From a virus: 43,830 nucleotides of DNA. The DNA lies in IMG/VR virus record IMGVR_UViG_3300005817_000001, one strand, 5' to 3'. Each line of letters starts with the position of its first letter. Within the stretch, counting starts at the first letter, position 1. Below, piece by piece: positions 17,750-17,897 of this stretch. The notes below the pieces were generated by a model. That model saw nothing but the letters and a program-made list of their open reading frames with translations, searched no databases and was not told the DNA's origin. Both the position numbers and the translations under genes were made by a program.

Positions 17750-17897
17750 GCTCCACTAGTCTCCCCGAATCTTCCTTGTTCGCTGGATCCTACTACGCTT
17801 TCCACAAGCCCTGTCCGCCACCGCTGCACGGTGTCGTACTAGGACAGTGTATACGCTGCGTGCCAGCTAGAACAAGAAGATTAGTTGAGCCGTTCCC
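17750..17897 (-). ncRNA. Structured element, copy B (twin of 8528-8670), in the 3' UTR of the late operon
   Basis: On the - strand, AATCTTCTTGTTC (17882-17870) pairs with GAACAAGGAAGATT (17781-17768) and GCTGG pairs with CCAGC. The apical part has CTGTCC...GGACAG enclosing CACCG-tgcag-CGGTG. It lies between the stop at 17901 and the terminator. Confidence 0.6.

Follow-up and report, generated by a model that had tools for sequence, protein, structure and literature searches.

A predicted self-folding RNA element in the mRNAs of uncultured relatives of Pseudomonas phage PaMx41

What is the long structured sequence that separates the last late gene of this phage from the terminator behind it, and what may it do for the phage? 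We studied the locus within the window, the whole stretch of 43,830 nucleotides that was analysed, and in related phages. The window begins and ends with an exact 24-bp direct repeat (1-24 = 43807-43830), which marks it as a circular assembly and thus as a complete phage genome of 43,830 bases. Early and replication genes occupy the plus strand up to 17676, and include those of a PD-(D/E)XK nuclease, a DEDDh exonuclease, a Sak4-like ATPase, PolA, a primase-helicase, MazG and a GH5 glycosidase, while virion genes occupy the minus strand down to 17901. The final late gene (17901-23582, minus strand) encodes an 1893-aa virion or ejection protein, to which phrog_16165 matches along the entire length. 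Over its C-terminal 499 residues the protein shares 64% identity with the structural/ejection protein of the Fredfastierviridae members PaMx41, PaP2 and 119X, all Pseudomonas phages, and its homologs in PaMx41-like phages are annotated as structural or ejection protein. The phages that bear the element are uncultured, distant relatives of PaMx41. The cumulative GC skew peaks at 17-18 kb, and near the end of the window, 3′ of a terminator (about 43527-43565), lies a non-coding, repeat-rich region (43582-43740) with about five TGAAGGG-type 11-mers, about five copies of AGAGATTTGA and a run of 12 C, its tandem repeats spanning 43582-43715. Parts of this region are kept in contig L135 at about 85% identity; it is a candidate for the replication origin or for a region close to the end of the genome.

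The element at the late locus, hereafter copy B, is a rod-shaped block on the minus strand (AACGGC...GACUAGU, 17755..17893), delimited by alignment, consensus folding, a covariance model and the edges of conservation. It begins 8 nt 3′ of the TAA stop codon of the 1893-aa gene (17903-17901), after a 7-nt linker (17894-17900) that varies among phages; the conserved block opens at 17893 (ACGGC) and ends about 30 nt 5′ of the terminator hairpin. The covariance model scored it at 139 bits (E = 1.5e-36). The first-pass annotation, made from the sequence alone, had placed the stop codon at 17901, the close of the element at 17768 and a terminator hairpin at 17725-17697, and all these coordinates hold; the helix closing at 17768 is AAUCUUC-UUGUUC / GAACAA-G-GAAGAUU, and covariation revealed in addition an outer helix that carries copy B past 17768 to 17755. 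This outer helix pairs 17893/17892 with 17755/17756 and continues as scattered pairs to 17884/17766. It is followed by the helices AAUCUUC / GGAAGAUU (17882-17876 with 17775-17768), UUGUUC / GAACAA (17875-17870 with 17781-17776) and GCUGG / CCAGC (17867-17863 with 17786-17782), and by the apex (17862-17787). Within the apex, the apical domain (17811..17847) is the nested hairpin that had been described, CTGTCC...GGACAG enclosing CACCG-TGCAG-CGGTG: CTGTCC at 17847-17842 pairs with GGACAG at 17816-17811, around CACCG (17833-17829), the loop TGCAG and CGGTG (17823-17819). In the RNA helix CUGUCC/GGACAG a U-A pair is replaced by U-G in copy B of L135 and by C-G in copy A of L127, and the inner hairpin CACCG-UGCAG-CGGUG is invariant in all six copies with this type of apex.

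The terminator behind copy B (17691..17729, both strands) has the stem GCCCCCAC...GUGGGGGC at 17725-17697 (17725-17718 paired with 17704-17697), with six U at 17696-17691 and an A-run at 17729-17726. With a U-run at one end and an A-run at the other, the hairpin could stop transcription from either side, and it is common to the converging late (minus) and early (plus) operons. It is kept in relatives with and without copy B, and no other terminator-like hairpin than that at 17697-17725 was found 3′ of copy B. The inner part of the hairpin (17705-17717) is flipped among phages: it reads ACCGGCCTTGAGCTAGT in the window and is the exact reverse complement, ACTAGCTCAAGGCCGGT, in L139 (18670-18700) and L140, with close variants in L142 and L135, the hairpin being preserved. 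This looks like a palindrome-mediated inversion. Just 5′ of the common terminator, the end of the early operon (16372-17676) is a variable cargo slot, which holds a GH5 cellulase-like glycosidase gene in the window, L139 and L140 and other contents in L135 (15833-16069) and L142 (7415-8995); in L145 the slot (15996-16325) gives a faint Acb2/Tad1-like (anti-CBASS/anti-Thoeris) match. The region 17690-17905 as a whole folds at -87.4 kcal/mol (z = -5.0). As copy B lies between the stop codon and the terminator hairpin in sense orientation, a late transcript that ends at the terminator would carry the rod together with the terminator. The proposal that copy B is a structured 3′ UTR 5′ of a two-way terminator thus agrees with the predicted layout.

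A paralogue, copy A, was identified by local BLAST and by the covariance model (168 bits) in the early/replication operon (8530..8665, plus strand). It lies between the DEDDh exonuclease gene (7924-8520, stop codon 8518-8520) and a 57-aa gene (8695-8868), and is therefore intercistronic, as the annotation had it. Its helices correspond to those of copy B: AAUAGUC (8542-8548 with 8645-8652), UUGUUC / GAACAA (8549-8554 with 8639-8644) and GUGGG / CCCAC (8557-8561 with 8634-8638). Both copies are co-oriented with their own operons. There is no terminator at copy A, and a scan for promoter-like sites near either copy found none beyond chance level. A copy occupies position A in 11 phages, some of them with an exonuclease only 27-37% identical in protein sequence; compared with the window, the adjoining exonuclease is 53% identical in L135, 37% in L143 and 27% in L127. 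The small genes flanking copy A differ from phage to phage. Comparison with relatives indicated that the 138-aa ORF listed at 8699-9115 is a longest-frame artefact, the real genes being 8695-8868 (57 aa) and 8861-9115 (84 aa); the 57-aa gene is swapped for an unrelated 131-134-aa gene in most relatives and is missing in L138. In relatives without copy A the same junction carries a sigma-70-like promoter (TTGCAA, 17 nt, TAAGAT or TAACAT; L145 8401-8494, L148 100-460, L144 9569-9779), which makes the junction an expression-unit boundary, where a processing site would make sense. At this junction L148 and L144 also contain a non-coding stretch of 200-300 nt, in which a different structured leader RNA could reside.

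Profile and covariance-model searches brought the total to 16 copies, in the window and in 11 further contigs of related phages. Eleven copies are at position A (window, L132, L133, L134, L135, L138-L141, L143 and L127) and five at position B (window, L135, L139, L140 and L142), and the covariance model found no third copy in any genome. A pattern scan of metagenomes gave one true homologue (L127) and four chance matches; ten more carrier contigs were reached by searching with the proteins of the flanking exonuclease and Sak4 genes and then looking up the contigs. Relatives at a greater distance lack the element, namely L144, L145/L146, L148, L004 (IMG/VR), PaMx41, Polaromonas phage Tiera and EBPR podovirus 3, and none of the cultured phages carries it; a blastn search of the B region against 50,697 phage records returned no match. 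Motif patterns in IMG/VR yielded nothing or chance matches only, as checked by eye or by nhmmer, a motif scan of GTDB genomes yielded two matches, both by chance, and protein-guided IMG/VR scans yielded one relative lacking the element (L004) and otherwise none. With Rfam 15 there was no match anywhere in the window at gathering thresholds; in E-value mode the B region gave weak matches only, on the terminator-like hairpin, and copy A, L127 and L143 gave nothing meaningful. ARAGORN reported no tRNA or tmRNA gene in the window, and literature searches on the PaMx41 group and on catalogued phage RNA motifs brought up no description of the element. The element is genuine, previously undescribed and restricted to a small clade of uncultured phages. 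Its copies start 4-20 nt 3′ of a stop codon and never overlap a gene, and conservation falls sharply at both edges of the block. The linker 3′ of the stop codon and the spacer between rod and terminator are both variable, the spacer being the least conserved part.

The basal helices are real and evolutionarily maintained. Folded alone, the element is more stable than its dinucleotide shuffles (z = -3.3 for A and -3.4 for B), and in the alignment of the 16 copies 28 basal pairs are 97.7% paired, 11 of them with changes on both sides. The covariation score was 0.279, as compared to 0.112 ± 0.013 in shuffles, none of 500 shuffles reaching the observed values, and when the 3′ partners were slid by 1-3 columns as a control, pairing fell to 32-46%. 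The compensatory changes are evident already between the two copies of the window, AAUAGUC/GACUAUU in A corresponding to AAUCUUC/GAAGAUU in B, GUGGG/CCCAC to GCUGG/CCAGC, and an outermost G-C pair to A-U. Invariant or nearly so are the UUGUUC/GAACAA helix, a UA bulge, a G-A type internal loop and a bulge containing AGG. About 26 basal pairs are stacked and broken only by small bulges. Both types of apex extend the same hairpin, with further covariation, so that the whole element is a rod of about 140 nt, one long irregular hairpin of roughly 50 base pairs. The sense strand, which bears G-U pairs, folded better than its complement in every one of the 16 copies, by 7.6 kcal/mol on average, showing that the folding strand is the sense strand. 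From these patterns we infer that the element is a new family of self-folding RNA domains, a sense-strand part of phage mRNAs. Few phage structured RNAs have equal comparative support, in covarying pairs (11), strand bias and identity among copies (94-99%).

No conserved ORF is present within the element: an ORF of 32-35 codons occurs in some A copies, but its start or frame is lost in L135, L134, L143 and all B copies. Stop-codon read-through was likewise rejected, as at position A an in-frame stop follows after two codons. An apparent embedded sigma-70 promoter (TTGTTC, 17 nt, TATTCT) failed the promoter scan and is not conserved in L127.

To gauge the selection on the element, we compared its identity to the window with that of four-fold sites in the PolA, Sak4 and primase genes and in the C-terminal part of the 1893-aa gene, adding the exonuclease gene for L135, L139, L134 and L143. 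Against L135 both A and B are 94.2% identical while four-fold sites are 46-62% identical, and coding nucleotides are about 80% identical in four genes and 59% in the exonuclease gene. Against L142, B is 98.6% identical (four-fold sites 56-65%), and against L143, A is 66% identical (four-fold sites 29-43%). Judged by these identities, purifying selection on the element is shown to be strong, which would mean that the phage needs it, and a non-coding block is here more conserved than any neighbouring gene. Slow evolution, sharp edges and the lack of a conserved ORF together rule out that the block is a neutral or selfish repeat or encodes a hidden peptide. The constraint runs along the entire rod, apex included. 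The annotation had proposed a conserved base with a variable apex; the former is borne out (97.7% paired, n = 16), whereas the latter gives way to two discrete types of apex, each strongly conserved. B copies are 94-99% identical among phages whose four-fold sites are 46-65% identical. As L127 has a B-type apex at position A, the apex type is not bound to the intercistronic or the 3′ UTR position.

How copy B arose can be read from the relatives. In those that lack it, GTAGTAGA and the terminator come right after the stop codon, and in PaMx41 18 nt separate stop codon and terminator; L143 has copy A and lacks copy B. Comparison with L143, L145, L004 and PaMx41, all of which keep this layout of stop codon and terminator, identifies copy B as an insertion of 158 nt (17743..17900, minus strand) between the stop codon and an older terminator. 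Copy A, at a module boundary of the early/replication operon, is the older one. The copy of L127 has the B-type apex at position A and is overall closer to B than to A of the window, and B therefore derives from a variant of the A locus: an A-like copy with an apex of the L127 type would have been inserted between the final late stop codon and the existing terminator. The insertion cleanly illustrates how a 3′ UTR can gain an element.

What the element does is less clear-cut, and we tentatively prefer one reading, which we hold to be possible and the best of several: the element may be an mRNA-borne module for a factor that binds or cuts double-stranded RNA, which sets or stabilizes mRNA ends and perhaps releases a stable RNA. 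The basal duplex, with its invariant UUGUUC/GAACAA helix, UA bulge and G-A loops, would be the recognition site, and the most likely candidate for the factor would be host RNase III, with its cuts inside the basal helix. Such cutting or binding would define and stabilize the 3′ end of the upstream message, that of the exonuclease at A and that of the 1893-aa protein at B, and would uncouple this message from the RNA downstream. The upper rod might then be released as a stable RNA of 100-140 nt, or at B, as rod plus terminator, of about 200 nt. This reading is favoured by the maintained sense-strand fold, by the placement between genes and by the insertion of B 5′ of a terminator, and behind it stands a likeness to the RNase III sites of phage T7 and to lambda sib. 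Of the two roles that the annotation had compared with the layout at B, that of an exonuclease-protective 3′ structure, a putative barrier or source of a stable fragment, is plausible, while the likeness to 3′ UTR-derived sRNAs turned out weak, as the element has almost no conserved single-stranded stretch and the spacer is its least conserved surrounding. Three points weigh against the preferred reading. Constraint on the whole rod goes beyond what a simple RNase III site or exonuclease barrier would require; additional 3′ protection at B looks redundant with a terminator hairpin 30 nt downstream; and a hairpin formed by the same strand as single-stranded DNA would give the same covariation and strand bias.

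The first of these points keeps alive a trans-acting noncoding RNA, since the whole-sequence constraint exceeds the needs of an RNase III-type site. Here the rod would be freed from the mRNA and its loop core would act as decoy or scaffold by binding a protein of the host or of the phage, for instance a structured-RNA sensor, RNA polymerase or a nuclease, and the two types of apex would give two specificities, by analogy with VA RNA I and II of adenovirus. We consider this unlikely, even if the constraint is at the level of tRNA or rRNA across 140 nt, apex included, the two apex types are discrete, conserved and swappable between loci, the unpaired core (UA bulge, G-A loops, AGG bulge) is invariant, and B with the terminator behind it is arranged like a stable RNA gene. 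The promoter-like sites near the copies do not exceed chance, copy A has no terminator, and scanning the neighbouring and early proteins with Pfam and PHROG revealed nothing RNA-related, leaving no candidate partner. More doubtful still is the specific version in which a pair of rod RNAs cut from the mRNAs serve as protein decoys or scaffolds, maybe for a CBASS-type cyclase, another defence factor or an RNA-decay factor; if true, the decoy rods would be a bacterial-virus counterpart of the adenovirus VA RNAs, two apex types providing two specificities. Should the element bind a protein rather than act as an RNase III-type module, it would represent a new class of phage RNA, and one of note, since the PaMx41 group serves as a model of CBASS immunity.

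The third point, a hairpin at the DNA level, would make the element a loading or priming site for the primase-helicase, or a recombination site. This reading presumes an origin near the repeats at about 43.6 kb and replication in the direction of transcription, which would make the folding strand of both copies the lagging-strand template. The single-strand initiation signals ssiA and ssiB of RSF1010 are on opposite strands, and this arrangement, of RSF1010 ssiA/ssiB or G4 type, is shared by copies A and B, each of which is on the expected lagging-strand template as judged by gene layout, GC skew and the repeats at 43582-43715. Copy A moreover lies inside the replication module, beside the exonuclease, Sak4, PolA and primase genes, the genes around it vary as they do at recombination hot spots, and compensatory changes and G-T wobbles fit folded single-stranded DNA equally well. 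Yet B was inserted within a transcribed 3′ UTR and not beyond the terminator, neither iterons nor an AT-rich unwinding region accompany the copies, no recombinase, integrase or similar protein was identified, and G-T pairs, poor stabilizers of a DNA hairpin, are kept. On balance, we regard a DNA-level role as improbable. Last, a selfish palindromic repeat, an ERIC- or Correia-like miniature inverted repeat inserted at two transcribed sites to no benefit of the phage, might be suggested by the clean 158-nt insertion at B relative to related phages, by the imperfect palindrome with long inverted arms and by the two copies per genome, but is very improbable and effectively refuted by 94% identity as against 46-62% at four-fold sites, by compensatory evolution, by the same two loci in every carrier with no further copies found by the covariance model, by searches that gave chance matches only (patterns in GTDB and IMG/VR) or a single further copy (metagenomes), by the lack of a target-site duplication beyond a shared AA, and by the fact that A has stayed at one locus even as the protein next to it diverged to 27-37% identity.

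Comparison with known systems sets the element apart from several RNA and DNA families. The put RNA of HK022 consists of two adjacent stem-loops, about 70 nt in all, a short way 3′ of the promoter of an operon, and was rejected as a model, the element being a single 140-nt rod, with B at the very end of its operon and A in mid-operon without a promoter-like site. A 6S RNA, a rod whose large central bubble imitates an open promoter, was rejected on account of the small internal loops, of at most about 5 nt a side, and the lack of an Rfam match. A diversity-generating retroelement has its variable repeat within the 3′ end of the target gene and differing from the template repeat at adenines. Copy B lies wholly outside an ORF, and the differences between A and B are compensatory changes and a replacement of the apex, not adenine-specific ones. 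The defining features of integron attC sites and of hammerhead or other small ribozymes are missing.

Similar in shape are the REP/BIME, ERIC and Neisseria Correia elements, repeats of 100-150 nt that can be RNase III targets or mRNA stabilizers. Like them, the element is an imperfect palindrome in transcribed intergenic or 3′ UTR sequence that would form a long RNA hairpin, and the origin of B by insertion adds to the likeness. Those repeats, however, have many copies in host chromosomes and decay nearly neutrally, whereas the element has two fixed copies, occurs in phages only and is under strong purifying selection. The adenovirus VA RNAs are about 150 nt long, with a terminal stem, a central domain and an apical stem, and VA RNA I and II are, like copies A and B, two related, structured, rod-like viral RNAs. 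This is an analogy only: the VA RNAs are transcribed from promoters of their own and act on a known target, PKR, and for the element neither promoter nor partner was found. With enterobacterial 3′ UTR sRNAs of the CpxQ, SroC and DapZ type, copy B and its terminator would share the position at the 3′ end of a parent mRNA; however, the element is far larger and almost fully paired, and copy A has no terminator. An Hfq-type 3′ UTR sRNA was rejected, as there is no conserved single-stranded seed, the block being nearly all paired and the spacer variable.

Lambda sib controls the fate of its upstream mRNA via RNase III, and like copy B it is a structured element 3′ of a gene, beside a terminator. 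While sib overlaps the terminator and forms only on read-through, copy B lies wholly 5′ of its terminator, with no sign that it forms only on read-through transcripts. A further likeness is to phages T7 and T3. RNase III needs about two turns of double-stranded RNA, and between its cistrons T7 carries a family of related hairpins whose cutting by RNase III leaves the upstream message with a protective 3′ stem. A T7-type site requires a sense-strand hairpin between cistrons in which double-stranded RNA runs nearly unbroken for about 20 bp or more, and the element provides this. As with the T7/T3 hairpins (R0.3, R1.1), related hairpins recur within one podophage genome on the sense strand, just 3′ of a stop codon in polycistronic mRNA, as long imperfect duplexes with internal loops. 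The T7 sites are about 50-60 nt long; the element differs in its length of about 140 nt, its conserved apex, its much stronger constraint and its having only two copies. If it does act as an RNase III-type module, it would carry the T7 model of mRNA processing over to another podophage lineage, one that uses the host RNA polymerase.
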